Source: a virus. Taken from it: a DNA stretch of 17,928 bases. The stretch lies in the UHGV virus genome UHGV-1593002; one strand, given 5' to 3'. Positions 1 through 17,928 of this stretch are shown here, in pieces. Within the stretch, counting starts at the first letter, position 1, and the number at the start of each line of letters is the position of its first letter. The notes beneath the pieces were generated by a model. That model did no database searches, was not told where the DNA came from, and saw nothing but the letters and a program-made list of their open reading frames with translations. Position numbers and translations under genes: made by a program.

Positions 1-17
1 ACATAAAACATTTTGCA

Positions 18-689
18 TCAGCGACCAATCACCACAACCTGACCACCATCCCCTTCGTCTGCCGTGCTGATCTCCTGAGAAACCACGCGTGACCCCACGC
101 GCATTTCACCGTACAGAACAGGCAGAACATTGCCCTGGGCAACCATGTTATCCAGTGAGGAGAAATAGGTGTTCTGTTTGCCGTTATCCGTTGTCTGTGT
201 ACGGGGAGTTCTGGCTTTCGGTGCCAGCATCTGCGCCACACCACCGAGCACCATACTGGCACCGAGAGAAAACAGGATGCCGGTCATACCACCGGCCCCA
301 ATGGCTGCCCCCCATGCTGCAAGGGTGGCTCCGGCAGTAAAGAATGATCCGGCAATGGCGGCTGCTCCCAGGACAATCTGGAATACGCCACCTGACTTGG
401 CCCCGGCGACTCTGGGAACAATATGAATCACAGCGCCATCAGGCAGAGTCTCATGTAACTGCGCCGTTAACCCGGACGTGCTGACGTCCCGCCCGGCAAT
501 CCGTACCTGATACCAGCCGTCGCTCAGTTTCTGACGAAACGCCGGGAGCTGTGTGGCCAGTGCGCGGATGGCTTCAGCCCCCGTTTTCACACGAAGGTCG
601 ATGCGGCGGCCAAATCGTTGCAAATCCCCGTAAAGGCAGATGCGCGCCATGCCCGGTGACGCCAGAGGGAGTGTGTGCGTCGCTGCCAT
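18..689 (-). CDS. I: Tail tip assembly protein I (lambda gpI-like), 223 aa
   Basis: Full ORF of 223 aa, the length of lambda gpI; overlaps the 3' end of K by 103 nt as in lambda; position at the distal end of the tail gene block. Identity recognised from memory of lambda. Confidence 0.9.
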   Translation of the reverse strand: MAATHTLPLASPGMARICLYGDLQRFGRRIDLRVKTGAEAIRALATQLPAFRQKLSDGWYQVRIAGRDVSTSGLTAQLHETLPDGAVIHIVPRVAGAKSGGVFQIVLGAAAIAGSFFTAGATLAAWGAAIGAGGMTGILFSLGASMVLGGVAQMLAPKARTPRTQTTDNGKQNTYFSSLDNMVAQGNVLPVLYGEMRVGSRVVSQEISTADEGDGGQVVVIGR

Positions 690-1330
690 TTGTCGGTGTA
701 CCTCTCTCGTTTGCTCAGTTGTTCAGGAATATGGTGCAGCAGCTCGCCGTCGCCGCAGTAAATTGCGGCGTGATTCGGCACCGATGAACCAAAACAGCAC
801 AGCAGCACATCGCCCGGCTGTGCCGCTGACAACGGCACCTGATACAGCCCCGTCGCCTCCAGATTATCCAGATAGAGATTCTGGCCGTTACGCCACCAGT
901 CATCCTCACGATGAAAGTCCGGCATCTCAATCCCCGCCAGATGATAAGCATCCCGGAACAGTGTGTAACAGTCCGTCACACCGTGCTCAAAGCGCCGCCC
1001 GGTGAGATGCGGCACACAGCGGAACTTATGAATCGTCCCCCGGCAGACCAGCCACCACGGCAAATCACTCTGCACCTGCAGCCGCCGGTCGGCCTCACTC
1101 AGCCAGGGCAGACCACCGGGGTGGCTGTGGACCAGCGCCACAATCTCACCCTGCATTTCTGCCTGCAGCCAGTCTTCCGGCGACATACGGAAATACGCCT
1201 CCGGCTCACCGGAGATATTCACGCAGGGGAAATATCTTTCCCCCTCCGGCGTGCTTACCACGAAGCCGCACGACTCCGCTGGCGCACATCGCCGGGCGTG
1301 CGCCAGAATCGCTGATTCTGTCTGTGTCAT
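587..1330 (-). CDS. K: Tail tip assembly protein K (JAB/MPN JAMM motif plus NlpC/P60-like C-terminal region); ORF as drawn is 247 aa, the lambda-annotated 199-aa form would start at the internal Met at 1186
   Basis: ATG at 1330 lies 5 nt after the L stop. Translation contains HSHPGGLPWLSEAD, matching the JAMM metalloprotease motif HxHx7Sx2D. The C-terminal 199 aa correspond to lambda gpK as I recall it. Confidence 0.85.
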   Translation of the reverse strand: MTQTESAILAHARRCAPAESCGFVVSTPEGERYFPCVNISGEPEAYFRMSPEDWLQAEMQGEIVALVHSHPGGLPWLSEADRRLQVQSDLPWWLVCRGTIHKFRCVPHLTGRRFEHGVTDCYTLFRDAYHLAGIEMPDFHREDDWWRNGQNLYLDNLEATGLYQVPLSAAQPGDVLLCCFGSSVPNHAAIYCGDGELLHHIPEQLSKRERYTDKWQRRTHSLWRHRAWRASAFTGICNDLAAASTFV

Positions 1331-1335
1331 GGGAT

Positions 1336-2034
1336 TTACTGCGAAAGTTTGTTAATGGAAAGGAAGCCGCCAAAGTTGCCGACGTTATTGCGGAACTTAC
1401 AACCGCTCAGGCATTTGCTGCATTTATCCTTCGTGATATCGGACGTTGGCTGGTCATATTCATCCGCGACCGCCGGACCGCTATAACCGCACTCGTCACC
1501 GCGATAGGTCCAGGTGCAGGTGTTGGCCAGCATGATACGTCCCGGAAAAACAGCGCCATCCGTTTCCGTCGGCGTGGACAGTACAAAGGAGGCACTCACC
1601 GCGCTCAGTTCGCTGCACTGCTCAATGCGCCAGCGGCTGATCACCTCCTGCTCCGGATCGGCATAACTGTTTCCGTTGACGAAGTTCACCGCATCCAGAA
1701 AACGGGCGTAAACCTTACGCCGGACCACCGTTCCGCCGACCAGACTCTGCATATCTTCCGCCATCCCGGTGACCATACCGTACAGGTTAGAAACCGTCAG
1801 CGTGGGGCGCGTACTGGTGCCTTTGCCATTCAGTTCAAAACCGCTCCCCTGAATGGGATACGGCTGATACTGTCGCCCCTGCCAGGTGACCGGCTCACCT
1901 TTTTCGTTCTGCTCATTACAGAAAAAATAACGTTCTCCACCGACCTCTGTCAGGTCGATTTCCCAGAGCACCACGCTGGCCGACTGCTCCGCACGGGTGC
2001 ATTCATTCAGTGTTTCCTGCCGGATATCCTGCAT
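1336..2034 (-). CDS. L: Tail tip assembly protein L (lambda gpL-like), 232 aa
   Basis: 232-aa ORF, same length as lambda gpL, with Cys-rich C-terminus (CSKCLSGC); start overlaps the M stop by 1 nt as in lambda. Confidence 0.9.
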   Translation of the reverse strand: MQDIRQETLNECTRAEQSASVVLWEIDLTEVGGERYFFCNEQNEKGEPVTWQGRQYQPYPIQGSGFELNGKGTSTRPTLTVSNLYGMVTGMAEDMQSLVGGTVVRRKVYARFLDAVNFVNGNSYADPEQEVISRWRIEQCSELSAVSASFVLSTPTETDGAVFPGRIMLANTCTWTYRGDECGYSGPAVADEYDQPTSDITKDKCSKCLSGCKFRNNVGNFGGFLSINKLSQ

Positions 2035-2363
2035 CAGTTCACCACCTGTTCAAACTCTGCGCTGAACTCAACACGCAGCATACTGACCCGCGACGACCAT
2101 TTTGCGCAGGTCACCTTTATCTGCCGCCACTCATAAGGCGGCGTCCACAGAAAGGCTTTCCAGCCCCCGTGCTCTTCCAGAAACGACTCCAGTACCGTGG
2201 CCTCCTCACGGGGGACAGAAAGCGTCACGCTGTACGTTTTCAGGTTGGCATTCAGCCCGGCAGGCGCTCGCTGGGAACAGCCATCACCAAAGCGCACCTT
2301 TCTTACAGAAGGGGCCGAAGCCACATCCATACCGGGTTTCACTTTCCAGCGGAAGGTTTTCAT
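2034..2363 (-). CDS. M: Tail tip assembly protein M (lambda gpM-like), 109 aa
   Basis: 109-aa ORF between H and L; start overlaps the H stop by 4 nt as in lambda. Confidence 0.9.
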   Translation of the reverse strand: MKTFRWKVKPGMDVASAPSVRKVRFGDGCSQRAPAGLNANLKTYSVTLSVPREEATVLESFLEEHGGWKAFLWTPPYEWRQIKVTCAKWSSRVSMLRVEFSAEFEQVVN

Positions 2364-4921
2364 CGTCCACCTCCGGAGAACAGACCACCATCACGCATCT
2401 GTGTCTGAATTTCATCACGGGCACCCTTGCGGGCCATGTCATACACCGCCTTCAGAGCAGCCGGACCTATCTGCCCGTTCGTGCCGTCGTTGTTAATCAC
2501 CACATGGTTATTCTGCTCAAACGTCCCGGACGCCTGCGACCGGCTGTCTGCCATGCTGCCCGGTGTACCGACATAACCGCCGGTGGCATAGCCGCGCATC
2601 AGCCGGTAAAGATTCCCCACGCCAATCCGGCTGGTTGCCTCCTTCGTGAAGACAAACTCACCACGGTGAACAATCCCCGCTGGCTCATATTTGCCGCCGG
2701 TTCCCGTAAATCCTCCGGTTGCAAAATGGAATTTCGCCGCAGCGGCCTGAATGGCTGTACCGCCTGACGCGGATGCGCCGCCACCAACAGCCCCGCCAAT
2801 GGCGCTGCCGATACTCCCGACAATCCCCACCATTGCCTGCTTAAGCAGAATTTCTGTCATCATGGACAGCACGGAACGGGTGAAGCTGCGCCAGTTCTGC
2901 TCACTGCCGGTCAGCATCGCCGCCATATTCTGTGCAATACCATCAAAGGTCTGCGTGGCTGCACTTTTTACCTGCGACATACTGTCCGTGGCGCTCTCTT
3001 CCCACTCACTCCAGCCGGACTTCAGGCCTGCCATCCAGCTCCCGCGAAGCTGGTCTTCAGCCGCCCAGGTCTTTTTCTGCTCTGACATGACGTTATTCAG
3101 CGCCAGCGGATTATCGCCATACTGTTCCTTCAGGCGCTGTTCCGTGGCTTCCCGTTCTGCCTGCCGGTCAGTCAGCCCCCGGCTTTTCGCATCAATGGCG
3201 GCCCGTTTTGCCCGTTGCTGCTGTGCGAATTTATCCGCCTGCTGCGCCAGCGCGTTCAGGCGCTCCTGATACGTAACCTTGTCGCCAAGTGCAGCCAGCT
3301 GGCGTTTGTACTCCAGCGTCTCATCTTTATGCGCCAGCAGGGATTTCTCCTGTGCGGACAGCTGGCGACGTTGTGCCGCCTCCTCCAGTACCGCGAACTG
3401 ACTTTCTGCCTTCCACAAATCCCGGCGCTGCTGGCTGATTTTCTCATTCGCTCCGGCATGCTTCTCCAGCGTCCGGAGTTCTGCCTGAAGCGTCAGCAGG
3501 GCAGCATGAGCACTGTCTTCCTGACGATCGCCCGCAGACACTTTCACGCCGGACTGTTTCGGCTTTTTCAGCGTCGCTTCATAATCCTTTTTCGCCGCCG
3601 CCATCAGCGTGTTGTAATCTGCCTGCAGGATTTTCCCGTCTTTCAGTGCCTTGTTCAGTTCTTCCTGACGGGCGGTATATTTCTCCAGCGGCGTCTGCAG
3701 CCGTTCGTAAGCCTTCTGCGCCTCTTCGGTATATTTCAGCCGTGACGCTTCGGTATCGCTCTGCTGCTGCGCATTTTTGTCCTGTTGAGTCTGCTGCTCA
3801 GCCTTCTTTCGGGCGGCTTCAAGCGCAAGACGGGCCTTTTCACGATCATCCCAGTAACGCGCCCGCGCTTCATCGTTAACAAAATAATCATCCTTGCGCA
3901 GATTCCAGATGTCGTCTGCTTTCTTAAACGCAGCCTCTGCCTTAATCAGCATCTCCTGCGCGGTATCAGGACGACCAATATCCAGCACCGCATCCCACAT
4001 GGATTTGAATGCCCGCGCAGTCCTGTCTGCCCAGGTCTCCAGCGTGCCCATGTTCTCTTTCAGGCGGCGGGTCTGGTCATCAAACCCTTTCGTTGCGGCC
4101 TCGTTCGCCGCCTGCAATGCCCCGGCTTCATCGCCGGAACGCTGCAACTGAGCAACATACGCAATCTGCTCCGCCGTCACGTTATGGAACTGGCGTGCCA
4201 TCGCCGTCAGCCCCGACGTCGGGTCTGTGGTCAGCTTCCCGAAGGCTTCAGCGACCTTGTCCACCTCCACGCCGGATGCAGAGGAGAAACGCGCCACACT
4301 CTGGCTGATGGACGCAATCTGAGCCTCACCGCTTACCCCCGCCTTAACCAGTGCGCTGAGTGACTCGCTGGTCTGGTTAAACGTCAGCCCTGCCGCCTGC
4401 CCGGCTCTGGACAGGACCAGCATACGATCTGCCGTCAGACCCGACTGATGACCGGAAAGGACCAGCGTTTTGTTGAAATCGGACAGGGTTGAGTTGCCCT
4501 GATACCAGGCATACGCCAGCGCACCGGTCGCCACCGCCAGCGAGGTGGCCCCCACCATCGGCAGGGTGATCGCACCGGCAAGCCCCCTGAACATGGGGAT
4601 CATCCCGCCGAAGGAGTCCTTCACCTGCCCCCCCTGTTGCAGCAGGATCAGCCACGGACTTTGCCCGCCTGCAAGCTGCGTGGCCACGTCAGTGAACTGC
4701 GCAGGCAGCATACGCATGGCAGCTTTATACTGCCCGACGGAAATCCCCGCTTTCTGTGCAGCCAGCGCCTGTCGGCTCAGCGACTGTTCAACGACTGCCG
4801 CTGTTTTTTTCGCATCACTTTCCGTACCGGAAAAATGACGCCTGACTCTGGCCATCTGCTCGTCAAATCTGGCCGCATCCAGACTCAAATCAACGACCAG
4901 ATCGCCTACCGGTTCAGCCAT
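2360..4921 (-). CDS. H: Tail tape measure protein H (lambda gpH-like), 853 aa
   Basis: 853-aa ORF, the length of lambda gpH; long coiled-coil-like central region rich in A/Q/E/K/R and Gly-rich C-terminal segment; overlaps T by 8 nt as in lambda. Confidence 0.95.
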   Translation of the reverse strand: MAEPVGDLVVDLSLDAARFDEQMARVRRHFSGTESDAKKTAAVVEQSLSRQALAAQKAGISVGQYKAAMRMLPAQFTDVATQLAGGQSPWLILLQQGGQVKDSFGGMIPMFRGLAGAITLPMVGATSLAVATGALAYAWYQGNSTLSDFNKTLVLSGHQSGLTADRMLVLSRAGQAAGLTFNQTSESLSALVKAGVSGEAQIASISQSVARFSSASGVEVDKVAEAFGKLTTDPTSGLTAMARQFHNVTAEQIAYVAQLQRSGDEAGALQAANEAATKGFDDQTRRLKENMGTLETWADRTARAFKSMWDAVLDIGRPDTAQEMLIKAEAAFKKADDIWNLRKDDYFVNDEARARYWDDREKARLALEAARKKAEQQTQQDKNAQQQSDTEASRLKYTEEAQKAYERLQTPLEKYTARQEELNKALKDGKILQADYNTLMAAAKKDYEATLKKPKQSGVKVSAGDRQEDSAHAALLTLQAELRTLEKHAGANEKISQQRRDLWKAESQFAVLEEAAQRRQLSAQEKSLLAHKDETLEYKRQLAALGDKVTYQERLNALAQQADKFAQQQRAKRAAIDAKSRGLTDRQAEREATEQRLKEQYGDNPLALNNVMSEQKKTWAAEDQLRGSWMAGLKSGWSEWEESATDSMSQVKSAATQTFDGIAQNMAAMLTGSEQNWRSFTRSVLSMMTEILLKQAMVGIVGSIGSAIGGAVGGGASASGGTAIQAAAAKFHFATGGFTGTGGKYEPAGIVHRGEFVFTKEATSRIGVGNLYRLMRGYATGGYVGTPGSMADSRSQASGTFEQNNHVVINNDGTNGQIGPAALKAVYDMARKGARDEIQTQMRDGGLFSGGGR

Positions 4922-5348
4922 ACCGGACTCCTCCTGCGATCCCTTCTGATACTGTCATCAGCATTGCGTCATCCTCCGTCATGTCCGCCACATCCGGGGA
5001 AGTAGGGATAACTTCATTCCCGTCCGGGCCAAAGCGGACACCTCCGGCAAGCCCTGCCGCTTTCTGCATCAGCACATCATCTTCAGGCTCTTCGTCAGCC
5101 TCGCGCCGGTTCAGCAGACTGAAATCCAGCGGATGCATATCCGGATCGCTGAAAAACAGGCTGAGCACGGTGTACGTCAGCCCGGAAAAGTGCATATCCA
5201 GCAGAACATCATGAAAATAATGGGTACTGTAAAAGCGGTGCCAGTCGGCATACTCCGTGGATGACATCCCGGCAAGCATGGCACGCCAGTCGGGTCGCCC
5301 CATCTCACGCGCCAGTTTCAGGGCAAAACTCAGCTCACCGTCGAACAC
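4914..5348 (-). CDS. T: Tail assembly chaperone T segment, expressed only as a G-T fusion by -1 programmed ribosomal frameshift from G
   Basis: ORF in the -1 frame relative to G, beginning inside the 3' end of G directly at the slippery heptamer; no plausible independent start (first codon is GTG within the slip site). Confidence 0.85.
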   Translation of the reverse strand: MFDGELSFALKLAREMGRPDWRAMLAGMSSTEYADWHRFYSTHYFHDVLLDMHFSGLTYTVLSLFFSDPDMHPLDFSLLNRREADEEPEDDVLMQKAAGLAGGVRFGPDGNEVIPTSPDVADMTEDDAMLMTVSEGIAGGVRYG

Positions 5349-5752
5349 TTTCCCGCAGAAACAGGTTCTGCGGGCCCGGCGTCCTCTGCCTGTTCAGGGG
5401 CATTATTCACCACAAACTCATACATACCAGACAGCCGGTACACCACGTTTTCAGCATGAGAAATTGCCTCTGTGGGCCAGGTGGTAAGCACTTCCTGCTC
5501 AATCTGTTTAACGGCTTCATTCATGGAAGGCTGCTTTGTCTTCTGCGGATGGTTATGCCACAGGGACATCGCCACCAGAAACGCGCCGGTTCTGATGGCG
5601 TCTTCCACAGTAAACTTCCGGTTGCTGTCTGACTCCGCCTGTTCTGCCTGCCGTTTCATCAGGGCGAGATGCTCAATACGCTGCAGGGCTGACAGTTCAG
5701 AAAGCGTGACGGTCACACCGTTATGTTCAAATGATTCGGTTTTCAGGAACAT
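5330..5752 (-). CDS. G: Tail assembly chaperone G (lambda gpG-like), 140 aa
   Basis: 140-aa ORF immediately downstream of V; contains the frameshift site near its 3' end. Confidence 0.9.
   Translation of the reverse strand: MFLKTESFEHNGVTVTLSELSALQRIEHLALMKRQAEQAESDSNRKFTVEDAIRTGAFLVAMSLWHNHPQKTKQPSMNEAVKQIEQEVLTTWPTEAISHAENVVYRLSGMYEFVVNNAPEQAEDAGPAEPVSAGKCSTVS
5348..5354 (-). other. -1 programmed ribosomal frameshift slippery heptamer G GGA AAG (G to G-T)
   Basis: Minus-strand sequence GGGAAAG is in X XXY YYZ register with the G reading frame (G codons GGA and AAG); the -1 frame continues open into T. Confidence 0.8.
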
Positions 5753-5767
5753 CTCTGACTCTCCGGA

Positions 5768-6508
5768 TTAACTGGCGGTGACGGTGATTTCTGCAACCGC
5801 AGCAAACTCACCATTACCGGATACAATCGGAATGTTGACCTTGCCTGCAGCAACGCCATTCACGGTGATGGTCATACCACTGACCGACACGGTGGCTTTT
5901 GTTTTATCCGCTGACACCGCACGGAAGCTCTTGTCGGTTGCGCCTTCCGGCTGGAATGCCACGGTCAGCGTGGTGCTCTTCCCTTTCACTACGGAAGCGC
6001 TGGCTGGCGTCACGGTCATACCGGTTACCGCTGTTACCGTGCTGCGATCTTCTGCCATCGACGGACGTCCCACATTGGTGACTTTCACCGTGCGGGTGAT
6101 CACTTCCTTCGCCGTCACCGCCTTACCGATACTGCTGACCCAGCCGCGGAACACATCGACCGTGCCGTTCGGGAAGCGGATTTTATAGGCACGGGTATCA
6201 CCTTCATTAAACCACGCCAGCAGCGCCTGCTGCCCCTGCTCTCCGGGCATCCACGCCAGCGTGAAGCTGGTATCTCCGGCGGATTTCTGCCCCTGTCCGG
6301 TCGCGGTCCAGTCCGCATCTTCATCATCGAGATAACTGTCGTCATAGGACTCAGCGGTCAGTTCGCCGGGCGTCAGGTCTTTAACCTTTGCCAGACGCGA
6401 CCAGTCATTGTCTGAAAGCGGGTTTGCATAAGGGTCGCCGCTCCCGTTATAAACCCACAGGGTGGTCCCGGCCCCTTTCACCGGTGCCAGAGGATTTGGT
6501 GTTGGCAT
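5768..6508 (-). CDS. V: Major tail tube protein V (lambda gpV-like), 246 aa
   Basis: Recognisable gpV sequence with the C-terminal Ig-like segment; start placed at the ATG giving MPTPNPL (246 aa), not the longer ORF-finder start at 6538. Confidence 0.9.
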
Positions 6509-6515
6509 ATCGTCC

Positions 6516-6911
6516 TCACATTTCATAGGTAATGACATAAGTCAGATCGGCTGAACTCCACAGGCCCGCATCATCGTCGCGCCGGTAGTCATAGCCACTG
6601 GCCACCATACTGGTGATCAAATCTGACAGTGCCGGGATATCGCTCATCACCGGATAAATCCGGGACTCCATCCACGCATCCAGCTCTGAATCCGGCACCT
6701 GAGCAGGCAGGAAAACTTCGATATGCAGCTCCGCCTGCCAGGTATCGCTGTCCAGCTCTTCGCCCGTGTATTCAGCGCCGGTGAGATAAACGGCAACTGC
6801 CGGAAAATCCGCCTCATCAAAAACAGCGGGGCGACCATCAAAAAACGTCGCCCCGGTGTCATGCTTCTCCAGTGCATCCAGTACGGCTGCGCGGAGTTCA
6901 GTATGTTTCAT
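6516..6911 (-). CDS. U: Tail terminator protein U (lambda gpU-like), 131 aa
   Basis: 131-aa ORF; start overlaps the Z stop by 4 nt as in lambda. Confidence 0.9.
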
Positions 6912-7486
6912 CGCTTTATTACCATTCTCAGTTGATGCTGCAGCGCATAGCCCAGCTCTTTCGGAAGACGTTCACGCCGTATCCGCTCAATATTCTGTTT
7001 AAACGCCGTGGTCAGCGGCACCGCCATCGGAATTTTCACCACATCAATGGGGTAACGGTTTTTCCCGGCCACACGCTGCATGACATGCCACCGGCCATTT
7101 TTCAGTTGCTGAATAAACGCGCCGGGAATACGACGGTTTCCCACCACAAGCACGCTGCCGCCACCTTTCAGGGATGAACGCTGCCCCTTTTTACGACGCC
7201 TGCGGCGCGAAAGGACAACCCGCGCATTACCCAGCTTGATTACGGGCAAATCCCCCCGGTTAACCTTGATTCTGGCCTGCGGATTTTTGACCGTGGCCCT
7301 TTTCAGCCTGGCCCTTTCCTTTACCAGTTTCCGGCGTACCTTTGTCTCACGGGCAACCTGTGACGCCGACTGCGATATCGCGGATGAAGCAACTCGGTTA
7401 ATGGCCATTGCGGCGGCACCGGGCACCGCCGTTCTGCTGATACGGCTGAGGTTTTCAACGGCCTGCTCAAGACCTTTTATGGCCAT
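6908..7486 (-). CDS. Z: Tail completion protein Z (lambda gpZ-like), 192 aa
   Basis: 192-aa basic protein (RRRRRKKGQR stretch) between FII and U. Confidence 0.9.
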   Translation of the reverse strand: MAIKGLEQAVENLSRISRTAVPGAAAMAINRVASSAISQSASQVARETKVRRKLVKERARLKRATVKNPQARIKVNRGDLPVIKLGNARVVLSRRRRRKKGQRSSLKGGGSVLVVGNRRIPGAFIQQLKNGRWHVMQRVAGKNRYPIDVVKIPMAVPLTTAFKQNIERIRRERLPKELGYALQHQLRMVIKR

Positions 7487-7497
7487 ACATCCCCCTT

Positions 7498-7851
7498 TCA
7501 GCGGCGACGGTTAACGGCAGGCGGTACGCCCCGTCCAAGCCAGAGATGACAGCTTCCGCCATCATCCGGCGAAACCCGATCTACCCAGAAATTTTCCTCA
7601 CCGATGGTCAGCGTGTCTCCACGCCGCAGCTGCCGCACCTCATCAGTCCGGACAAACAGGGACGGGCTGGAGCCTTCAACGCGCACGCCCTGTCCGGCAT
7701 AGCTGATATTTTCAGGGTCATCAAAAACACCACGTATCACCGCACCTGACTGCTCACCGGATGTAATGGTGGCTGACGTTCCCATGTACCCGCGTATCGT
7801 TTCATCGGCGCGGGCAATGGCAGCATCGAACAGGTTATCGAAATCAGCCAC
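7498..7851 (-). CDS. FII: Head-tail connector protein FII (lambda gpFII-like), 117 aa
   Basis: 117-aa ORF in the conserved position between FI and Z. Confidence 0.9.
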   Translation of the reverse strand: MADFDNLFDAAIARADETIRGYMGTSATITSGEQSGAVIRGVFDDPENISYAGQGVRVEGSSPSLFVRTDEVRQLRRGDTLTIGEENFWVDRVSPDDGGSCHLWLGRGVPPAVNRRR

Positions 7852-7862
7852 AGCGCCTCCCG

Positions 7863-8261
7863 TTATTGCATTCTGGCCAGGCCGCGCTCTGTCATTTCGG
7901 CTGCCACACCGGCAGAGACACGAAACGCCGTTCCCGGCAGCACAAATGCCACAGGTTCATCCCGCGTGGCGTGAAGTGCATCAGTATGCAGCTTCACCAG
8001 TGCCACGACCGTGACCAGTTCAGACGTATCCAGAATCACGGTATCCGGCTGCGCTGATCCCACCTCATTTTCATGTCCGGTCAGCACATTTTCCCGGCTG
8101 AGAGGGGTGTCCTGACCGGCAGTTTCATCCGTGTCATCAAGCTCCTCTTTCAGCTCTGCCACACGGAGCGCCAGTTCTTCTTTCGTCCCCGTCAGGCTGA
8201 CATCACGGTTCAGTTGTTCACCCAGCGAGCGGAGACGGGCAATCAGTTCATCTTTCGTCAT
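7863..8261 (-). CDS. FI: DNA packaging / head assembly protein FI (lambda gpFI-like), 132 aa
   Basis: Start placed at the ATG giving MTKDELIARL (132 aa); the longer ORF-finder start at 8300 is rejected; acidic linker region typical of gpFI. Confidence 0.9.
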   Translation of the reverse strand: MTKDELIARLRSLGEQLNRDVSLTGTKEELALRVAELKEELDDTDETAGQDTPLSRENVLTGHENEVGSAQPDTVILDTSELVTVVALVKLHTDALHATRDEPVAFVLPGTAFRVSAGVAAEMTERGLARMQ

Positions 8262-8302
8262 GGACTCCTCCACAGAGAAACAATGGCCCCGAAGGGCCAT
8301 GA

Positions 8303-9328
8303 TTACGCCAGTTGAACGGACACGAACTCATCAGGATCAGCCAGCAGCATCAGCGGTGCTGACTGAATCATGGTGAACTCACGCGCCGGATCGCCGGTAG
8401 TCACCCAGTTTTTCGGGTAACGGGCAGAGGCGTTAATGCCTTCGCGCTGTGCGTCCGCATCCTGAATGCAGCCATAGGTGCGCAGACCGCGAGCCTGAGT
8501 GTTCCCCAGCACCATCGTGTTGTCCGGCAGGAAGTTCTTTTTGACGCCGTTTTCCACGTACTGTCCGGAATACACGACGATGGCCACATCGCCATACATT
8601 CCCTTATAGGACACCGCTTTGCCCAGGTCTTTTACCGCTGTCTCCAGCTCGGAATGAGAGCCGCGACGGGTATCCAGCTTCTCCTTGACGGCTTTGAAGG
8701 AACGGAACAGCGCCCAGCCTTTCGGATCAAACACGATGATATTCACCACACCGCTGGCGTTCAGCGCGTAGGCTTCGATATCGTCGGTCGGGTCATACGT
8801 GGACTTGTCACGCTTGCTCCACTCCGTGCCGCCGGACTGCGTGATGTTATTCGCCTCACTGCGGCCCATATCCACCTCAACCGGATCGAAGGCTTCACCG
8901 GTCATGGTATATTTGCCCTTAAGCACGGCAGAAACTGCCTGCATCTCTTCGACCTGAGCAATGGCCAGCTCTTCGTCACGCATGTTCTGCATGATGATGC
9001 GACGGCGGCGGTAAGCCGGGTCCGCCAGATTCTGCGGATCTTCATCCGGCAGGCGACGCAGGGTCATCTGCGGATTCACTTCATGCTTGGGTTTGACATA
9101 TCCCGGCGTAAATTCAGAGGTGGAGCCGCCACGGGAACGGATAACCTCACCGGAAACAATCGGCGAAACGTACAGCGCCATGTTTACCAGTCCCGGAATT
9201 TGTGAGAGATAGACTTTCTCCGTAGTGAAGGGATAGCTCTCACGGAAAAAGAGACGCAGAAACAGCGGATCAAACTTAAATTTCTGCTCATTTGCCGCCA
9301 GCAGCTGGGCGGTTGTGTACATCGACAT
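8303..9328 (-). CDS. E: Major capsid protein E (lambda gpE-like), 341 aa
   Basis: Start at the ATG giving MSMYTTAQLL (341 aa); the ORF-finder extension upstream is rejected. Confidence 0.95.
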   Translation of the reverse strand: MSMYTTAQLLAANEQKFKFDPLFLRLFFRESYPFTTEKVYLSQIPGLVNMALYVSPIVSGEVIRSRGGSTSEFTPGYVKPKHEVNPQMTLRRLPDEDPQNLADPAYRRRRIIMQNMRDEELAIAQVEEMQAVSAVLKGKYTMTGEAFDPVEVDMGRSEANNITQSGGTEWSKRDKSTYDPTDDIEAYALNASGVVNIIVFDPKGWALFRSFKAVKEKLDTRRGSHSELETAVKDLGKAVSYKGMYGDVAIVVYSGQYVENGVKKNFLPDNTMVLGNTQARGLRTYGCIQDADAQREGINASARYPKNWVTTGDPAREFTMIQSAPLMLLADPDEFVSVQLA

Positions 9329-9342
9329 AAAAAAATCCCGTA

Positions 9343-9367
9343 AAAAAAGCCGCACAGGCGGCCTTTA
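9343..9367 (-). promoter_or_regulatory. Intercistronic GC hairpin followed by a T7 run between D and E
   Basis: Minus strand reads GGCCGCCTGTGCGGC followed by TTTTTTT, 5-6 bp G/C stem with CTGT loop, directly upstream of the E start. Confidence 0.35.
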
Positions 9368-9383
9368 GTGATGAAGGGTAAAG

Positions 9384-9716
9384 TTAAACGATGCTGATTG
9401 CCGTTCCGGCAAACGCGGTCCGTTTTTTCGTCTCGTCGCTGGCAGCCTCCGGCCAGAGCACATCCTCATAACGGAACGTGCCGGACTTGTAGAACGTCAG
9501 CGTGGTGCTGGTCTGGTCAGCAGCAACCGCAAGAATGCCAACGGCAGCACCGTCGGTGGTGCCATCCCACGCAACCAGCTTACGGCTGGAGGTGTCCAGC
9601 ATCAGCGGGGTCATTGCAGGCGCTTTCGCACTCAATCCGCCGGGCGCGGTTGCGGTATGAGCCGGGTCACTGTTGCCCTGCGGCTGGTAATGGGTAAAGG
9701 TTTCTTTGCTCGTCAT
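9384..9716 (-). CDS. D: Capsid decoration protein D (lambda gpD-like), 110 aa
   Basis: Start at the second in-frame ATG ([11 protein letters not shown]), which has AAGGG about 6 nt upstream; 110 aa. Confidence 0.9.
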
Positions 9717-9725
9717 AAACATCCC

Positions 9726-10331
9726 TTACACTGGTGTGTTCAGCAAATCGTTAACGGCATCAGATGCCGGGTTACCTGCAGCCAGCGGTGCCGGTGCCCC
9801 CTGCATCAGACGATCCAGCGCAGTGTCACTGCGCGCCTGTGCACTCTGTGGTGCTGCGGCCAGAATGCGGCGGGCCGTTTTCACGGTCATACCGGGGGTT
9901 TCTGCCAGCACGCGTGCCTGTTCTTCGCGTCCGTGAGCCTCCTCACAGTTGAGGATCCCCATAATGCGGCTGTTTTCTGCCGCAACCGCTGCGGTGATCT
10001 GCGCGTTCACGTCCGGCTGCGCCGCGCTGGCGTTCTCGCCCTCCGTCGCTGGCACCACGTCAGTAACGTCAGCCTGCGAAGCAGTGGCTGAAACAGTTGT
10101 TGATTGAGTCTCTTTGGTCATTCGCCCTCCTGAGAGACGGGATTTACGTGCATCCAGTGCATCACGCATGACGGTGATCGCATCGGTGCTGTTAACAAGT
10201 TCATCAGCCAGTCCGGCATCAATGGCCTCCTGACCGCTGTACACTGCAGCCTCGGTATCCAGCACAGCCTGCACGGACAGGCCGGTATATGCCGACACCT
10301 TCTGTGCAAACATCCGGCGGGTTGCATCCAT
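9726..10331 (-). CDS. Nu3: Scaffolding protein Nu3, nested in frame within the 3' third of C
   Basis: Internal in-frame ATG at 10331 (MDATRRMFAQ) giving a 201-codon product co-terminal with C, the lambda C/Nu3 arrangement. Confidence 0.8.
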   Translation of the reverse strand: MDATRRMFAQKVSAYTGLSVQAVLDTEAAVYSGQEAIDAGLADELVNSTDAITVMRDALDARKSRLSGGRMTKETQSTTVSATASQADVTDVVPATEGENASAAQPDVNAQITAAVAAENSRIMGILNCEEAHGREEQARVLAETPGMTVKTARRILAAAPQSAQARSDTALDRLMQGAPAPLAAGNPASDAVNDLLNTPV

Positions 10332-11025
10332 CCGGGACTGCAGTGTTTCCCGGACATCATCCGGTAGATGGCTGTAGGGGTTGCCATCCACCTTATGGCT
10401 GCCGCTGTAAATCAGCGTGATTTCCACGCCCTGTTTCTCCAGCGCAGCACCGTAATTACTGTGAGCCATCATGACGCCGATGGAGCCTGTCCGGGCGGTC
10501 TGCGTGACCAGACGCCGGGAGGCGGCGCTGGCAAGCAGCTGACCTGCACTGCAGTTCATGTCGTTGGCCAGCGCCCATACCGGTTTTATGTCTCGCACAC
10601 GGGCGATGATGTCAGCACAGTCAAATGCTCCCGCCACCATCCCGCCCGGTGTGTCCATATCCAGCAGAATGCCGTCCACCATCGGATCGCTGGCAGCCTG
10701 TTGCAGACGGGCGATAATGCCGTTGTAACCGGTCATTCCCGAATACGGCTGCAGCGCCCGCGTCCGGCTGACCAGCGTACCGGACACCGGCAGCACGGCG
10801 ATGCCGTTCATGACCTGATAACTGCGGGCCTGTCGTGGTCCGTCATCATCACCGGATAACGCCAGCGCCGCGGGTGCCTCTCCGGCAGTCAGGCTGTCGC
10901 CGGATACTGCATCCGTCAGGCGGCTGATCCCAAACTGGCCTGCAAGCGCACAAAAGAAAACCCGCGCATAGGCGGGTTCAAGCATCAGCGGCTCATTAAA
11001 AGCCATGCTGGCAATATGCGGGAGA

Positions 11026-11045
<20 letters not shown>
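9726..11045 (-). CDS. C: Capsid assembly protease C (lambda gpC-like, S49/ClpP-type), 439 aa, GTG start
   Basis: GTG at 11045 overlaps the 3' end of B by 20 nt, as in lambda; the 484-aa ORF-finder version is an in-frame read-through of the B 3' end. Confidence 0.85.
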
Positions 11046-14726
<3,681 letters not shown>

Positions 14727-14752
<26 letters not shown>

Positions 14753-15272
14753 TCAGCAACCCCGGTATCAGTTCATCCAGCGCGGCTGCTTTGTTCATGG
14801 CTTTGATAATATCCCGTTTCAGGAAATCAACATGTCGGTTTTCCAGTTCCGGAAAACGCCGCTGCACCGACAGGGGGAGCCCGTCGAGAATACTGGCAAT
14901 TTCACCTGCGATCCGCGACAACACGAAAGTACAGAATGCGGTTTCCACCACTTCAGCGGAGTCTCTGGCATTCTTCAGTTCCTGTGCGTCGGCCTGCGCA
15001 CGCGTAAGTCGATGGCGTTCGTACTCAATAGTTCCTGGCTGGAGATCTGCCTCGCTGGCCTGCCGCAGTTCTTCAACCTCCCGGCGCAGCTTTTCGTTCT
15101 CAATTTCAGCATCCCTTTCGGCATACCATTTTATGACGGCGGCAGAGTCATAAAGCACCTCATTACCCTTGCCACCGCCTCGCAGAACGGGCATTCCCTG
15201 TTCCTGCCAGTTCTGAATGGTACGGATACTCGCACCGAAAATGTCAGCCAGCTGCTTTTTGTTGACTTCCAT
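14727..15272 (-). CDS. Nu1: Terminase small subunit Nu1 (lambda gpNu1-like), 181 aa
   Basis: 181-aa ORF starting MEVNKKQLADIFGASIRTIQNWQEQGMPV (winged-HTH N-terminus), immediately downstream of cosB. Confidence 0.95.
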
Positions 15273-15289
15273 TGTTCATTCCACGGACA

Positions 15290-15449
15290 AAAACAGAGAA
15301 AGGAAACGACAGAGGCCAAAAAGCTCGCTTTCAGCACCTGTCGTTTCCTTTCTTTTCAGAGGGTATTTTAAATAAAAACATTAAGTTATGACGAAGAAGA
15401 ACGGAAACGCCTTAAACCGGAAATTTTTCATAAATAGCGAAAACCCGCG
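15290..15449. promoter_or_regulatory. cosB: terminase (Nu1) binding region with three R elements and an AT-rich putative IHF bend
   Basis: Three copies of the CGTTTCC core (15302-15308 and 15403-15409 as GGAAACG, 15342-15348 as CGTTTCC); the two inner copies form an inverted repeat (GAAAGGAAACGACAG / CTGTCGTTTCCTTTC) flanking AT-rich DNA; located between cosN and the Nu1 start. Confidence 0.7.
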
Positions 15450-15461
15450 AGGTCGCCGCCC
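15450..15461. other. cosN: the 12-bp lambda cohesive-end sequence (joined form)
   Basis: Plus strand AGGTCGCCGCCC is the reverse complement of the lambda cohesive end GGGCGGCGACCT; the flanking sequence matches the lambda left and right termini as I recall them. Confidence 0.85.
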
Positions 15462-15467
15462 CGTAAC

Positions 15468-15495
15468 CTGTCGGATCGCCGGAAAGGACCCGCAA
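15468..15495. promoter_or_regulatory. cosQ region (approximate)
   Basis: Placed by position only, about 15-30 bp on the right-end side of cosN where lambda cosQ lies; the motif itself was not verified. Confidence 0.4.
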
Positions 15496-15660
15496 AATGA
15501 TAATAATTATCATCTGCATGTCACAACGTGCATCTACGCCATCAAACCACGTCAAATAATCAATTATGACGCAGGTATCATATTAATTGATCTGCATCAA
15601 CTTAACGTAAAAACAACTTCAGACAATACAAATCAGCGACACTAAATACGGGACAACCTC

Positions 15661-15894
15661 ATGTCAACGAAGAACAGAACCCGCAGAACAACAATCCGCA
15701 ACATCCGCTTTCCTAACCAAATGATTGAACAAATTAACATCGCTCTTGATCAAAAAGGGTCCGGGAATTTCTCAGCCTGGGTCATTGAAGCCTGCCGCCG
15801 GAGACTGTGCTCAGAAAAAAGAGTTTCTCCTGAAGCAAACAAAGAAAAGAGTGACATTACTGAATTGCTCAGAAAACAGATCAGACCAGATTGA
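15661..15894 (+). CDS. ylcI: Ribbon-helix-helix DNA-binding protein, YlcI/YnfO (DUF3950)-like, 77 aa
   Basis: MSTKNRTRRTTIRNIRFPNQMIEQINIALDQKGSGNFSAWVIEACRRRL fits an RHH fold (beta strand TIRNIRF, helix NQMIEQINIALDQ, turn GSGN, helix FSAWVIEACRRRL) and matches my recollection of the DLP12 prophage protein YlcI, which lies next to the Nu1 homologue nohD. Confidence 0.65.
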   Translation: MSTKNRTRRTTIRNIRFPNQMIEQINIALDQKGSGNFSAWVIEACRRRLCSEKRVSPEANKEKSDITELLRKQIRPD

Positions 15895-15950
15895 AGCAAT
15901 TTAGATAATCGTGCAGACTACGCCCCTCATATCACATGGAAGGTACCACA

Positions 15951-16361
15951 ATGGCTCAGGTTGCCATTTTTAAACAAATATTCGATAAAGTGCGAAATAA
16001 TTTAAACTATCACTGGTTTTATTCTGAACTAAAACGTCACAATGTCTCACATTACATTTACTATTTAGCTACAGAGAATATTCATCTTGTTCTTGAAAAC
16101 GATAATACGGTTTTAATAAAAGGACAGGGTAAGGTTGTAAATGTAAGATTTTCAAAAAATAAATGCCTTATAGAAGCCACCTTAAAAGGATTCAAATCAG
16201 GAGAGTTATCATTTTACGAATACAGGAAAAATCTTGCTACAGCAGGGGTTTTCAGATGGATTACAAATATCCACGAAAACAAAAGGTATTACTATACCTT
16301 TGATAATTCATTACTCTTTACTGAGAACATTCAGAACACTACACAAATATTTCCGCACTAA
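15951..16361 (+). CDS. Hypothetical prophage moron protein, candidate DUF1398 (YbcV/YdfO-like), 136 aa from the second ATG
   Basis: ORF 15936-16361; the second ATG at 15951 has GGAAGG 7 nt upstream. Markedly AT-rich compared with the late genes; 56 nt downstream of the YlcI-like gene on the same strand. Family assignment is from memory and unverified. Confidence 0.55.
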
Positions 16362-16406
16362 ATCATAACGTCCGGTTTCTTCCGTGCCAGAACCGGACTC
16401 GCTGGC

Positions 16407-16571
16407 ATGATGAAATATGTGTACCCGGTAACCCCGGTGTGCATCGTTTTTGATTATTCCCGCACACTCGCGCAGAAGGAGTTCCCCGTCGGGCTACGGT
16501 CTCTGTTAATACGGGAATACGGCGACGATACAGCGCATGATGTGTCAGGCTTGAATACCTTTATCCTTTAA
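16407..16571 (+). CDS. Hypothetical small ORF, 54 aa (MMKYVYPVTPVCIVFDYSRTLAQKEFPVGLRSLLIREYGDDTAHDVSGLNTFIL)
   Basis: Uninterrupted 55-codon frame with ATG start, found by hand (below the ORF-track length cut-off); lies between a perfect 8-bp hairpin (16372-16399) and a plus-strand terminator; no convincing RBS. Confidence 0.2.
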   Translation: MMKYVYPVTPVCIVFDYSRTLAQKEFPVGLRSLLIREYGDDTAHDVSGLNTFIL

Positions 16572-16617
16572 AAGGGATATCAGTTAAGTTATCCCGTGTA
16601 GGGTATAAACCATTATC

Positions 16618-16647: not shown

Positions 16648-16650
16648 ATG

Positions 16651-16680
16651 GCAATAAAAAGCCCCGCGAATGCGAGGCTA
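16651..16680 (-). terminator. Putative rho-independent terminator (minus strand)
   Basis: Minus strand AGCCTCGC-ATTC-GCGGGGCT (8-bp stem with one G-U pair, 4-nt loop) followed by TTTTTATT; about 27 nt downstream of the small ORF that follows Rz. Confidence 0.6.
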
Positions 16681-16706
16681 AATCCTGGTATTTGTAATGA
16701 CTGGTT

Positions 16707-16856
16707 CTTATCTCAACGCAGCCCCTTACCGCGCGCAAAATGCTCAATATCAAGCATCAGCAATGAGATGTTTAATCTGGATTCACTCCAGAAGTGAGCA
16801 CCACCCTGTCTACAGAGCCAGATGTGAAGGATGATGAGTAAAATTATCGCTATCAT
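16707..16856 (-). CDS. Hypothetical small protein, 49 aa, hydrophobic N-terminus ([47 protein letters not shown])
   Basis: ATG overlaps the Rz TGA stop in an ATGA arrangement (translational coupling); ORF is followed by the minus-strand terminator; found by hand, not on the ORF track. Confidence 0.3.
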
Positions 16857-17320
16857 CGAAGGCATTGCGTCCTGATGTATTCCTGAAGCGTTCTCAGTGC
16901 TGTTTGGTCGCGGATAATTCCGTCCCGGATACCGAGAACGTTTCGTCCAGCAACTGGAGAGAGTTCGACGGTGGCATCATTGCCCATGCCGGAGGCGCTG
17001 GAGGTTTCGGCTGAGGATGGCACAGGGCATTTTCCTTTGACGAGCACCCGACCACCATTATCAAGCTTGCGCCGAAGAGCATCATTTTCAGCTTTCGCAT
17101 CAGCTAACTCCTTCGTGTATTTATCATCGAGTGCATCAGCATCACGCTGGCGCTGCTGCATGTCAGTAATGGTGGCGTTCGCCTTCTCCAGTTCACTGGC
17201 CTTGTTATCACGCTGTTCTTTGTAGGCGATTGCATTATCACGGTAATGATTAACAGCCCATGACAGGCAGACGATGATGCAGATAACCAGAGCGGAGATA
17301 ATCGCGGTTACCCTGCTCAT
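16853..17320 (-). CDS. Rz: i-spanin Rz, 155 aa from the ATG at 17320
   Basis: N-terminal TM anchor ([26 protein letters not shown]) followed by a charged coiled-coil-like region; ATG overlaps the endolysin TGA stop (ATGA); contains the embedded Rz1 frame. The ORF-track start at 17332 is a GTG and was rejected. Confidence 0.85.
16894..17100 (-). CDS. Rz1: o-spanin Rz1 (outer-membrane lipoprotein), embedded in the +1 frame of Rz, 68 aa
   Basis: [21 protein letters not shown] contains a signal-peptidase II lipobox (VVGC); Pro-rich mature region ([16 protein letters not shown]); entirely inside Rz in a different frame. Confidence 0.8.
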
Positions 17321-17810
17321 TGTTGCCCCCACAAACAGACCTCACGCTCAATCTCACGACGAGTCATCAGGCCTTTCCATTGCTTACCGCCAGCGTATGC
17401 CCAGCGACGTAGCTGGTCACATGCGCCCTTGATATCGCCCTGGTTTATTTTGCGAAGAAGAGTAGATGTTCTGAAATTGCCTGCGCCCACGTTATAGACG
17501 AACGAGTAAAGAGCGCCGCGCGTTGTTTCCGGTATATCGACTTTGATGTACGGGTTAATTTGTCTGGCTACCGTGGCAAGGTCTTTATTCAGGAGGGCTT
17601 TGCATTCTGCTTCGGTATACGTTTTACCGGGAATGATGTCTTTTCCTGTATGCCCGTGACATACAGTCCATACGCCAACGATATCTTTGTATGGTATGTA
17701 GCTGACACCTTCCAGACCATCGTTACCACTTGGGCCAGTGATTAACACTGATGCTATAGCAATTGCTCCGCCACCAATAGCAGCAGCAACGGCTTTTCGT
17801 AATGATGGAG
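17317..17810 (-). CDS. R: SAR endolysin (phage 21 R / DLP12 RrrD-like lysozyme, GH24), 5' end interrupted by IS2 at about codon 2
   Basis: Gly/Ala-rich weakly hydrophobic SAR segment ([23 protein letters not shown]) followed by a T4-lysozyme-like E-x8-D-x5-T catalytic motif ([16 protein letters not shown]). The in-frame 5' extension to a TTG at 17838 lies inside the IS2 terminal repeat, so the native start codon and RBS are missing. Confidence 0.8.
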
Positions 17811-17928
17811 TAGACTGGCCCCCTGAATCTCCAGACAACCAGTATCACTTAAATAAGTGATAGTCTTAATACTAGTTTTTAGACTAGTCATTGGAGAACA
17901 GATGATTGATGTCTTAGGGCCGGAGAAA
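17811..17928 (+). mobile_element. IS2 insertion sequence, left end (IRL) and first 118 bp; element continues beyond the window
   Basis: TAGACTGGCCCCCTGAATCTCCAGACAACC... matches the IS2 left terminal inverted repeat as I recall it, and 91 bp later the InsC (OrfA) start MIDVLGPEK begins. Confidence 0.85.
17902..17928 (+). CDS. insC: IS2 transposase OrfA (InsC), N-terminal 9 codons only (truncated by window end)
   Basis: ATG ATT GAT GTC TTA GGG CCG GAG AAA = MIDVLGPEK, the N-terminus of IS2 InsC, preceded by GGAGAA as RBS. Confidence 0.8.

Follow-up and report, generated by a model that had tools for sequence, protein, structure and literature searches.

What became of the start of the endolysin gene R at the far end of the UHGV virus genome UHGV-1593002, and could a prophage carrying this allele still lyse its host? 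The window analysed here is the whole stretch of DNA (17,928 nt), and its last part contains three features on the plus strand.

17811..17928, + strand: IS2 left end, cut by the window end (matching bases 1-118 of K-12 IS2A)
17811..17852, + strand: IS2 left inverted repeat (IRL, 42 bp, length from PMC3299598), with A>G at position 32
17902..17928, + strand: first 9 codons of IS2 orfA (insC), MIDVLGPEK..., running off the window (from the mapping of insC1, IS2 base 92)

The comparison with 'insertion sequence:IS2A' of E. coli K-12 MG1655 (NC_000913.3, 1331 bp) detected 117 identical bases out of the 118 nt at 17811-17928, starting from IS2 base 1 (TAGACTGGCC...), which rules out a chance match. 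The original prediction of an IS2 terminal repeat from 17811 followed by the InsC start was borne out, and nothing in this comparison spoke against it. The sole mismatch, A>G at IS2 position 32 (window 17842), lies inside IRL, and the same G is present in all five other contigs with the R-IS2 junction. The insC1 start codon is at 17902-17904, preceded by GGAG at 17893-17896, and the weak inward promoter PIRL is located in the left-end region of the element (PMC3299598). The window itself includes orfA for its first 9 codons only. Contig L002, which has the same junction, carries 1310 of the 1331 nt of IS2 contiguously, with 2 mismatches to K-12 IS2A, the last 21 nt, including the outer IRR, being past the contig end; its transposase call of 422 aa (OrfAB-type, domains HTH_Tnp_1, HTH_21, rve, and rve_3) corresponds to the frameshift-fused orfA/orfB DDE transposase. 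Judged by these matches, the inserted element is IS2 (IS3 family), known for a 5-bp target duplication and copy-out/paste-in transposition via a minicircle, and the left end and orfA start of the window copy differ from those of K-12 IS2A by the one base in IRL.

The sequence beyond the IS2 end belongs to a truncated gene on the opposite strand.

17317..17810, - strand: 5'-truncated SAR endolysin gene R/rrrD of phage-21 type, starting at base 2 of codon 2 and ending with TGA (PF00959, homologues, and intact relatives)

Positions 1-17810 of the window are 100% identical to an uninterrupted lambdoid prophage at the DLP12 site in several complete E. coli genomes (ECONIH1 and others), and the identity stops exactly at 17810, 4 nt (ATGC) before the R start. 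The uninterrupted gene in MS6198 and ECONIH1 reads ...cgtaatgatggag|gcattattcacc on the window plus strand, and the comparison with these two genomes placed IS2 in codon 2 of R (rrrD type). The remaining gene, without its ATG and the base that opens codon 2, matches the intact gene at 100% identity as far as 17810. The phage lysozyme domain was detected in R (PF00959, E=1e-45, 155.6 bits), residues 10-173 of the open frame align to residues 2-165 of PDB 4ZPU ('Lysozyme RrrD') and 3HDE, and the placing of PSLRK at residues 3-7 in the original prediction was correct, as the alignment from residue 2 indicates. The weakly hydrophobic, Gly/Ala-rich N-terminal SAR segment following basic residues is kept, aligning to residues 6-28 of 4ZPU and 3HDE, and the catalytic motif E-X8-D-X5-T, given for SAR endolysins in PMC9239132, is readable in the truncated R. 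R thus belongs, by prediction, to the R21/RrrD-type SAR endolysins among the GH24 phage lysozymes. The start codon and ribosome-binding site of R, and with them the coupling to the pinholin gene, are missing from the window, where we found no in-frame ATG, no usable Shine-Dalgarno sequence (SD), and no intact ATG-initiated R, in agreement with what had been proposed.

The R-IS2 junction was found, base for base, in at least five independent assemblies from different assemblers. An exact-protein look-up of the chimeric open reading frame crossing it detected the junction in 6 contigs, each stopping inside IS2, and it was seen in 3 assemblies at NCBI as well as in contigs at ENA that come from at least 20 samples. 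The same junction is absent from 5,426 complete E. coli genomes, in which the best matches were IS2 copies at other positions, and an exact-pattern scan for this left junction did not find it in viral_contigs, metagenome_contigs, or genome_contigs. The window ends, as is typical of draft contigs, inside a multicopy repeat, which would fit a repeat-induced chimeric contig end; however, SKESA-type NCBI contigs, a SPAdes NODE contig, and MEGAHIT k141 contigs from separate samples share the identical junction, including its private G at position 32. The recurrence in at least five independent assemblies makes an assembly artefact vanishingly improbable. The junction is best read as a real IS2 insertion, which appears to be recent and clonally inherited, given the zero differences from the intact relatives over 17.8 kb.

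The genes following R in the same direction are intact.

16853..17320, - strand: Rz i-spanin, 155 aa (PF03245, E=4e-29, 101.8 bits)
16894..17100, - strand: Rz1 o-spanin lipoprotein, inside Rz in another frame, lipobox ...VVGC (PF06085, E=4e-21, 75 bits)
16660..16679, - strand: terminator-like GC hairpin with a T run downstream of the lysis cassette (consensus scan only)
1..16600, - strand: rest of the late operon, all intact (identity to ECONIH1 and others, no pseudogene flagged there)

The Rz ATG overlaps the R stop codon (ATGA) and has its own SD, GGGGG (duplex -8.4 kcal/mol); the identical sequence in ECONIH1 is annotated as 'lysis protein'. Rz with the embedded out-of-frame Rz1, both intact after R, forms a two-component spanin pair, embedded as in phage 21 and lambda. 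The late operon genes include small moron genes, Nu1 (PF07471), A, W, portal, protease, D, E, FI, FII, Z, U, V, G, T, tape measure, M, L, K, and I, the moron genes DUF1398 and YlcI being on the plus strand. In the intact relatives, the upstream neighbours of R are Q, three moron genes, and essD; Q is located about 3.1 kb upstream of essD, and the gene directly upstream of R encodes a PF04971 'P21 holin S' with an MKSM dual start and a TAATG overlap with R. The arrangement is that of the phage 21 cassette (S21 pinholin, R21, Rz/Rz1) and of K-12 DLP12 (essD-rrrD-rzpD/rzoD), the window R being near-identical to RrrD (4ZPU) and R21 (3HDE), except that the window R has no start codon and IS2 is in codon 2. 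A near-identical cassette (99.1%) is present in the deposited genome of Escherichia phage Kati. ECONIH1 has the same gene set as K-12 DLP12 upstream of Q (emrE, ybcK, ybcN, ninE, ybcO, rusA, and ylcG). The K-12 DLP12 prophage is defective, whereas in the window prophage the head, tail, and terminase genes form a full lambda-like set.

All contigs with this junction, the window included, end inside IS2, and the far side of the element was predicted from related loci.

17806..17810, no strand assigned: predicted 5-bp target (tggag on the + strand, CTCCA in the R sense; from related loci)

By this analogy TGGAG should recur at the IS2 right end as the duplication, and the predicted far junction reads ...GGGGCAAATCCA + TGGAG + GCATTATTCACC (the essD 3' end), i.e., ...GGAAATATAGGGGCAAATCCA-TGGAG-GCATTATTCACCTCTCG. 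In all 13 complete-genome loci with junctions read (13/13), the IS2 of the cassette was simply inserted and is flanked by a perfect 5-bp duplication; in a fourteenth locus, L020, no left inverted repeat was detected, and it was left out of the junction reading. Since the relatives are 100% identical, essD is expected beyond IS2 in this allele also. A larger rearrangement, in which essD, Q, and the early region were lost or moved elsewhere by an IS2-mediated adjacent deletion or by IS2-IS2 recombination and the window stayed behind as a stranded late-gene remnant, was considered as well. Related loci with IS-rich, rearranged cassettes do exist (L014 beside ISEc12, L019 and L020 with IS3), and the right junction was found nowhere: not in the 5,426 complete E. 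coli genomes, nor, as IRR + TGGAG + GCATTATT..., in the viral, metagenome, and genome contig collections, scanned (viral_contigs, metagenome_contigs, genome_contigs) with the pattern of IRR, 0-12 nt, and GCATTATTCACCTCTCG. The left junction is equally absent from the same collections, so that their silence carries no information. The padded query for the predicted 31-aa right-junction peptide (MPPWICPY...) gave 381 unrelated ORFs reading into the IS2 IRR, none of which had MPP at its N-terminus; among the 120 matches listed, the smallest had 37 aa, so the absence of a 31-aa peptide is uninformative. Simple insertion with perfect duplication at all 13 loci read and the IS2 unbroken for at least 1310 nt in L002 argue against a rearrangement, which we consider very improbable; a simple insertion into R, with essD on the far side, is the preferred reading.

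The frame of R continues into IS2 on the opposite strand, as had been noted, and the resulting open reading frame begins within the element.

17811..17838, - strand: IS2-derived 5' extension of the open frame (from translation), with TGA in frame two codons upstream

The minus-strand ORF (17838..17317, 173 aa) starts with TTG in IS2, crosses the junction, and continues into R. Its first codons are IS-derived, as suggested, but codon 10 (ACT) is a hybrid, with A from IS2 and CT from R. Only one further in-frame start exists, the GTG of codon 31; it was rejected as an alternative, since it has no SD and the SAR helix would be lost. Could the chimeric ORF nevertheless work as a TTG-started SAR endolysin with an N-terminus 8 residues longer, lysis being only delayed or leaky? 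No stop codon separates the IS2 part of the frame from R, RefSeq/PGAP names the product 'lysozyme RrrD' (WP_160483594.1), and this product keeps the basic residues R14 and K15 along with the SAR helix and the E-X8-D-X5-T motif. Assemblies encoding WP_160483594.1 include GCA_012305205.1 and GCA_053000165.1. SAR endolysins are moreover released spontaneously and can cause slow lysis even at a low level or without a holin (PMC9239132). Against this, TTG is a weak start, its anti-SD duplex is just -2.1 kcal/mol, compared with -7.1 kcal/mol at the native R start (ATG), folding predictions put both the TTG (in a hairpin of the MFE and centroid structures) and the GUGAU stretch in base-paired regions, and the translational coupling to essD is gone. 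A mechanical ORF call or a homology-based name is no evidence of expression. No outward promoter through IRL was detected at the scan threshold in the IS2 sequence, and the consensus scan found no terminator-like site in IS2 on either strand. In view of the weak duplex and the predicted fold, the IS2-internal TTG is best taken as a product of mechanical ORF calling and not as a plausible place for translation to begin, and a working chimeric endolysin is improbable.

The explanation that fits the whole is very probably that a full-length IS2 transposed into codon 2-3 of R in an otherwise complete DLP12-site prophage, leaving it R-null and lysis-defective. According to this reading, IS2 would have jumped into the essD, R, Rz/Rz1 cassette with its transposase genes divergent from R, and the R ATG, its Shine-Dalgarno sequence (GAGAGGTG), and the TAATG overlap with the essD stop codon would be displaced by about 1.34 kb. 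The body of R would stay attached to Rz/Rz1, with the TTG in the IS2 inverted repeat as the only in-frame 'start', and would be effectively untranslated since this TTG lacks an SD and is sequestered by a hairpin.

Loss of the R start was one part of the original prediction and is retained; the other, that R-Rz-Rz1 is cut off from the late promoter, was overstated. Even without the insertion, about 3.1 kb separate Q from essD, and Q-modified RNA polymerase is terminator-resistant in lambda biology. This distance and this property together suggest a mainly translational lesion affecting R, and not one that shuts off transcription of Rz/Rz1 and the morphogenesis genes. The classical polar IS2 insertions (lambda r32 and galOP::IS2) are likewise located within a phage transcription unit, after a promoter under antiterminator control, and their polarity is relieved by phage antitermination; here, in contrast, the main damage would be that one gene loses its translation start, rather than any transcriptional polarity. 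Upon induction, Q-antiterminated late transcripts would probably still cross IS2, and Rz/Rz1, head, and tail genes would be expressed. SAR endolysins pair with pinholins, which form only nanometre-scale holes (PMC9239132). The pinholin would still depolarise the membrane and kill the cell; without endolysin, the murein would stay, the culture would not lyse, and the virions would be trapped. An R-null, lysis-defective prophage is most likely and a reasonable prediction from the gene structure, and such a prophage would be lysis-defective but not harmless. Other prophages in the same genome may provide endolysin in trans when co-induced.

IS2 was detected in R and the 5' part of Rz in 46 complete-genome records, versus 0 in the terminase control. 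The targets TTAAC, GTTAC, and AATTG were each used in both orientations, in different strains and prophages.

Many further IS2 copies are distributed across R and Rz in other genomes. One case is E. coli FAHZZU6014 (NZ_CP182912.1), with IS2 (1331 bp, duplication GTAAT) in the same R allele, 7 nt from the window site, and essD intact beyond it. The window copy differs from this and other IS2-interrupted rrrD genes in its opposite orientation and target pentamer, indicating independent events. Dozens of independent IS2 insertions have occurred in this lysis-gene cluster, and the window copy is one of them.

Base composition was examined as the cause of the clustering. The GC content is 49% in R and the 5' part of Rz, 53% in the terminase control, and 42-45% in the moron region; the AT-rich control had fewer insertions than R-Rz, so AT-richness alone does not explain the clustering, and this candidate was rejected. 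Similar regional clustering, with identical 5-bp targets reused in both orientations, is found among the known non-random IS2 targets (the P1 hot region, Sengstag and Arber; hemB; the curvature model, Lewis et al., PMC3299598). The R-Rz cassette was not named as an IS2 hot target in the literature searched, and no paper with both 'rrrD' and 'IS2' was found there. We tentatively propose, at somewhat less than even odds, that IS2 has in the essD-R-Rz cassette of phage-21 type a regional hot target not described before, in which the transposase apparently chooses specific pentanucleotides, and that IS2 is a recurrent, quasi-programmed inactivator of SAR-endolysin modules in E. coli. If so, the window insertion would be a fresh example in an otherwise intact prophage. 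Less likely, some of the insertions leave a low-level, holin-uncoupled endolysin expression that is exploited by the host.

The window insertion is an ordinary gene knock-out of a known kind, textbook prophage decay, and matters little in itself; the repeated IS2 insertion in the cassette is more interesting. The lesion is masked by homology-driven annotation, the IS2::R chimera being listed under the name of the intact lysozyme. With every other gene of the window undisrupted, the element would probably pass as intact in prophage-completeness tools despite its probable inability to lyse the host. The predicted uncoupling of killing from release, with the pinholin intact and the endolysin lost, would be relevant to inducing such lysogens and to estimating phage-mediated gene flow, and the wider pattern bears on IS target choice versus selection in prophage domestication.

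R was not found in the window as a functional gene with its own start, and this is the central finding. The last 118 bases (17811-17928), which open with TAGACTGGCCCCCTGAATC, are identical to K-12 MG1655 'insertion sequence:IS2A' at 117 of 118 positions, starting from IS2 base 1, and the window ends 118 nt into the element. The sole mismatch, at IS2 position 32 (window 17842) within the left inverted repeat, is an A>G change. IS2 termini are inverted repeats of 42 bp (left) and 41 bp (right), and a weak inward promoter, PIRL, is placed just within the left end (Lewis et al., PMC3299598). The insC1 start of K-12 maps onto 17902-17904 and is preceded by GGAG, bearing out the original prediction of an IS2 left terminal repeat from 17811 followed by the InsC start. 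The lysozyme frame on the opposite strand, with Rz and Rz1 behind it, had also been described accurately.

Features of the lysis region (coordinates, strand, feature)
15661-16361, + strand: YlcI/YnfO (DUF3950) and DUF1398 genes, between the lysis cassette and Nu1 (family matches)
16713-16865, - strand (late strand): 50-aa hydrophobic ORF of no family, overlapping the Rz stop (ORF list)
16853-17320, - strand: Rz (PF03245), its ATG overlapping the R stop
16894-17100, - strand: Rz1 lipoprotein gene (PF06085), embedded in Rz
TTG 17838 to TGA 17317, - strand: chimeric IS2::R ORF, 173 aa (mechanical ORF list)
17811-17928, + strand: IS2 left end (117/118 to K-12 IS2A)

The small-gene region between the lysis cassette and Nu1 has 42-45% GC, versus 55% for the window. 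The product of the 173-aa ORF matches Phage_lysozyme (PF00959, E=1e-45), and its residues 10-173 align with residues 2-165 of 4ZPU ('Lysozyme RrrD') and of 3HDE, labeled merely 'Lysozyme' in the database, which we take to be phage 21 R. It differs from 4ZPU by four substitutions, and the alignment confirms that PSLRK corresponds to RrrD residues 3-7, as originally proposed. The R21-type catalytic domain, the SAR segment, and the E-X8-D-X5-T motif are all present. The chimera is deposited as WP_160483594.1, HAG8324665.1, MGS3735082.1, and MWV01813.1 under the names 'lysozyme RrrD' (RefSeq WP_160483594.1) or 'glycoside hydrolase family protein', and the disruption is hidden by annotation because the chimera is listed as an ordinary protein.

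An exact-protein look-up detected the chimeric ORF on a 22-kb contig of GCA_012305205.1, on an 18.7-kb contig of GCA_053000165.1, and on SPAdes- and MEGAHIT-built ENA contigs, one of them in at least 20 samples. The R-IS2 junction is identical base for base across these contigs, and all of them have the private G at IS2 position 32. An assembly artefact has next to no chance of being the source of a junction that NCBI, SPAdes, and MEGAHIT contigs share down to this G. On a sister contig with the same junction, IS2 extends over 1310 of its 1331 nt, differs from K-12 IS2A at two positions (one of them IS2 position 606), and has a 422-aa transposase call. The junction common to the contigs and this nearly full-length element show that the window carries neither an artefact nor a mere IS2 fragment.

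All contigs with the R-IS2 junction terminate within IS2. The junction was found in 0 of 5,426 complete E. coli genomes, and exact scans of three contig collections found neither the left junction nor the predicted right junction. The matches listed for the 31-aa predicted right-junction peptide were all unrelated ORFs that run into the right end of IS2. We infer that in this allele the IS2 right end, the target duplication, and essD (the pinholin gene) would follow beyond the element, because the relatives are 100% identical and the other cassette IS2 copies are simple insertions (13 of 13 with junctions read are 1331-bp insertions with a perfect 5-bp duplication). Some related loci are riddled with IS elements, as would suit a larger IS2-mediated rearrangement past the unseen end, which we nevertheless consider very improbable beside a simple insertion.

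In the complete genomes MS6198 and ECONIH1, which carry uninterrupted R, the window + strand reads cgtaatgatggag followed directly by gcattattcacctctcg, the break point lying between the two. Identity to both is 100% through 17810 and ends there, four bases (ATGC) before the R start, placing IS2 between ATGC and CTCCA. If IS2 duplicated 5 bp here as it usually does, its target would have been CTCCA (tggag, 17806-17810). The native order in phage sense is GAGAGGTGAATAATGCCTCCATCA, in which the essD stop TAA and the R ATG share one base, and the native R Shine-Dalgarno (SD) sequence is GAGAGGTG.

Prophages in ECONIH1, MS14385, IR53017, and others match window 1-17810 with 100.0% identity, and pseudogene flags are absent from all 24 late genes of this stretch. 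IS2 is thus the only difference between the window and a complete-looking DLP12-site lambdoid prophage, and the lack of any other difference in 17.8 kb means that the insertion is recent. The deposited genome of Escherichia phage Kati shows 99.1% identity across the terminase-to-R stretch. The upstream genes of the ECONIH1 prophage are an S24-peptidase repressor, a cro-like gene, O/P replication genes, and bet/gam; it also has the DLP12 set emrE-ybcK-ybcN-ninE-ybcO-rusA-ylcG, followed by the Q antiterminator (PF06530), three moron genes, essD (PF04971 'P21 holin S', with an MKSM dual start), and then R directly. The moron genes (10988-13747 of the ECONIH1 locus, L011) encode a lipocalin, a YbgA family protein, and an AraC-type HTH regulator. 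Toxin genes of Stx phages occupy this same position between Q and the holin, suggesting that the cargo genes probably ride on late transcription.

The Q-to-essD interval is an IS sink as well. The AraC-type gene holds IS2 in E. coli 042 and 13 related complete genomes (L012, duplication CTAAA) and in 1517k (L013, duplication TCGCT), and IS1 lies immediately upstream of essD in MS6198 and strain 165 (L015).

Other IS2 copies hit the R-Rz cassette repeatedly. In FAHZZU6014 (NZ_CP182912.1; locus L014) the same R allele carries an opposite-orientation IS2 (2615-3945 of the locus) only 7 nt away from the window's site, with the duplication GTAAT (window equivalent 17799-17803) and essD intact beyond the element; this is an event independent of the window's. 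PGAP calls a 163-aa 'lysozyme RrrD' there, with its start within the IS2 end. Complete genomes were searched with synthetic queries joining a 121-nt anchor to either IS2 end, detecting IS2 within ~620 nt of the anchor.

IS2 records per anchor (orientation relative to the window's IS2; fixed windows sampled; records counted, related lineages included)
Rz anchor 17070-17190 (5' Rz and all of R; window 17176-17810): 19 same, 27 opposite
R 5'-end anchor (R 5', essD, upstream): 11 same, 17 opposite
Terminase A anchor (control): 0 same, 0 opposite
AT-rich YlcI/DUF1398 anchor (control): 4 same, 10 opposite

The Rz and R 5' anchors overlap; records whose IS2 falls within the opening ~120 nt of R count under both. 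Judged by differences in total place counts, the control anchors occur in the collection at roughly the frequency of the R anchor or above it. At least 20 distinct IS2 positions were detected in the R-Rz region, indicative of many independent hits and a regional excess. Many of these hits are in defective Rac-site remnants; relaxed or positive selection would account for the excess equally well, as would the long residence of such remnants, since Rac/DLP12-type remnants keep R-Rz without terminase. That the essD-R-Rz cassette is an IS2 hot target is a tentative reading, somewhat short of an even chance.

Three targets were used in both orientations: TTAAC (17742-17746; L007/L015), GTTAC (17722-17726; L008/L016), and AATTG (17475-17479; L021/L022). 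The pairs span different strains and even different prophages (Rac-site versus iss-carrying), and another pair (L023/L024) nearly shares its target, 1 nt apart (ACAGG/GACAG at 17267/17266). That the same targets received IS2 in either orientation speaks for a nucleotide-level target preference of the IS2 transposase in the cassette, in agreement with the non-random insertion already described for this element (P1 hot region, hemB, curvature model; PMC3299598).

The copies near trkG (L007-L009) form a second IS2 lineage, with 57-62 mismatches per 1331 nt (~4.3-4.7% diverged from K-12 IS2A); on comparison, these three have the same termini and the same length. PGAP labels the copies at L013, L015, and L016 generically as 'IS3 family transposase'. 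Canonical IS2 occurs in the same cassette in the window, L012, and FAHZZU6014.

No in-frame ATG for R is left in the window. An in-frame TGA stands two codons upstream of the IS2 TTG, and within the 20 nt preceding this TTG anti-SD pairing reaches at best -2.1 kcal/mol, compared with -7.1 at the native R site and -8.4 at that of Rz, so the loss of both ATG and SD, as proposed, holds. The only other in-frame start, GTG at codon 31, is without SD, and its use would remove the SAR helix. Folding prediction for the IS2-antisense/R leader places both the GUGAU stretch and the UUG in paired positions (mean unpaired probability 0.33 versus 0.50 at the native site). With this pairing and the weak SD, a working TTG-initiated SAR endolysin with an N-terminal extension appears quite unlikely, and we infer that R is essentially untranslated.

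Sequence scans found no sigma-70-like promoter reading outward through the IS2 left end and no intrinsic-terminator-like site on either IS2 strand. In lambda, polymerase modified by Q resists terminators, and IS polarity is suppressed by phage antitermination; transcription of Rz/Rz1 and the morphogenesis genes therefore probably continues through IS2. For R, separation from the start codon matters more than separation from the late promoter; the former stands as predicted, and the latter carries lesser weight, Q already lying ~3.1 kb upstream of essD in intact relatives.

The components (IS2, the phage 21/DLP12 pinholin-SAR endolysin-spanin cassette, IS-mediated prophage decay) are already known, the literature search found no paper naming both rrrD and IS2, and the insertion itself is an ordinary event. 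Taken together, the core of the original prediction is supported: IS2 lies in codon 2 of R, ATG and SD are lost, and a lysis defect of the prophage is probable. SAR endolysins are the usual partners of pinholins, whose holes are nanometre-scale (PMC9239132), and therefore, upon induction of the R-null cassette, pinholin depolarisation should still kill the cell, which should not lyse or release virions.
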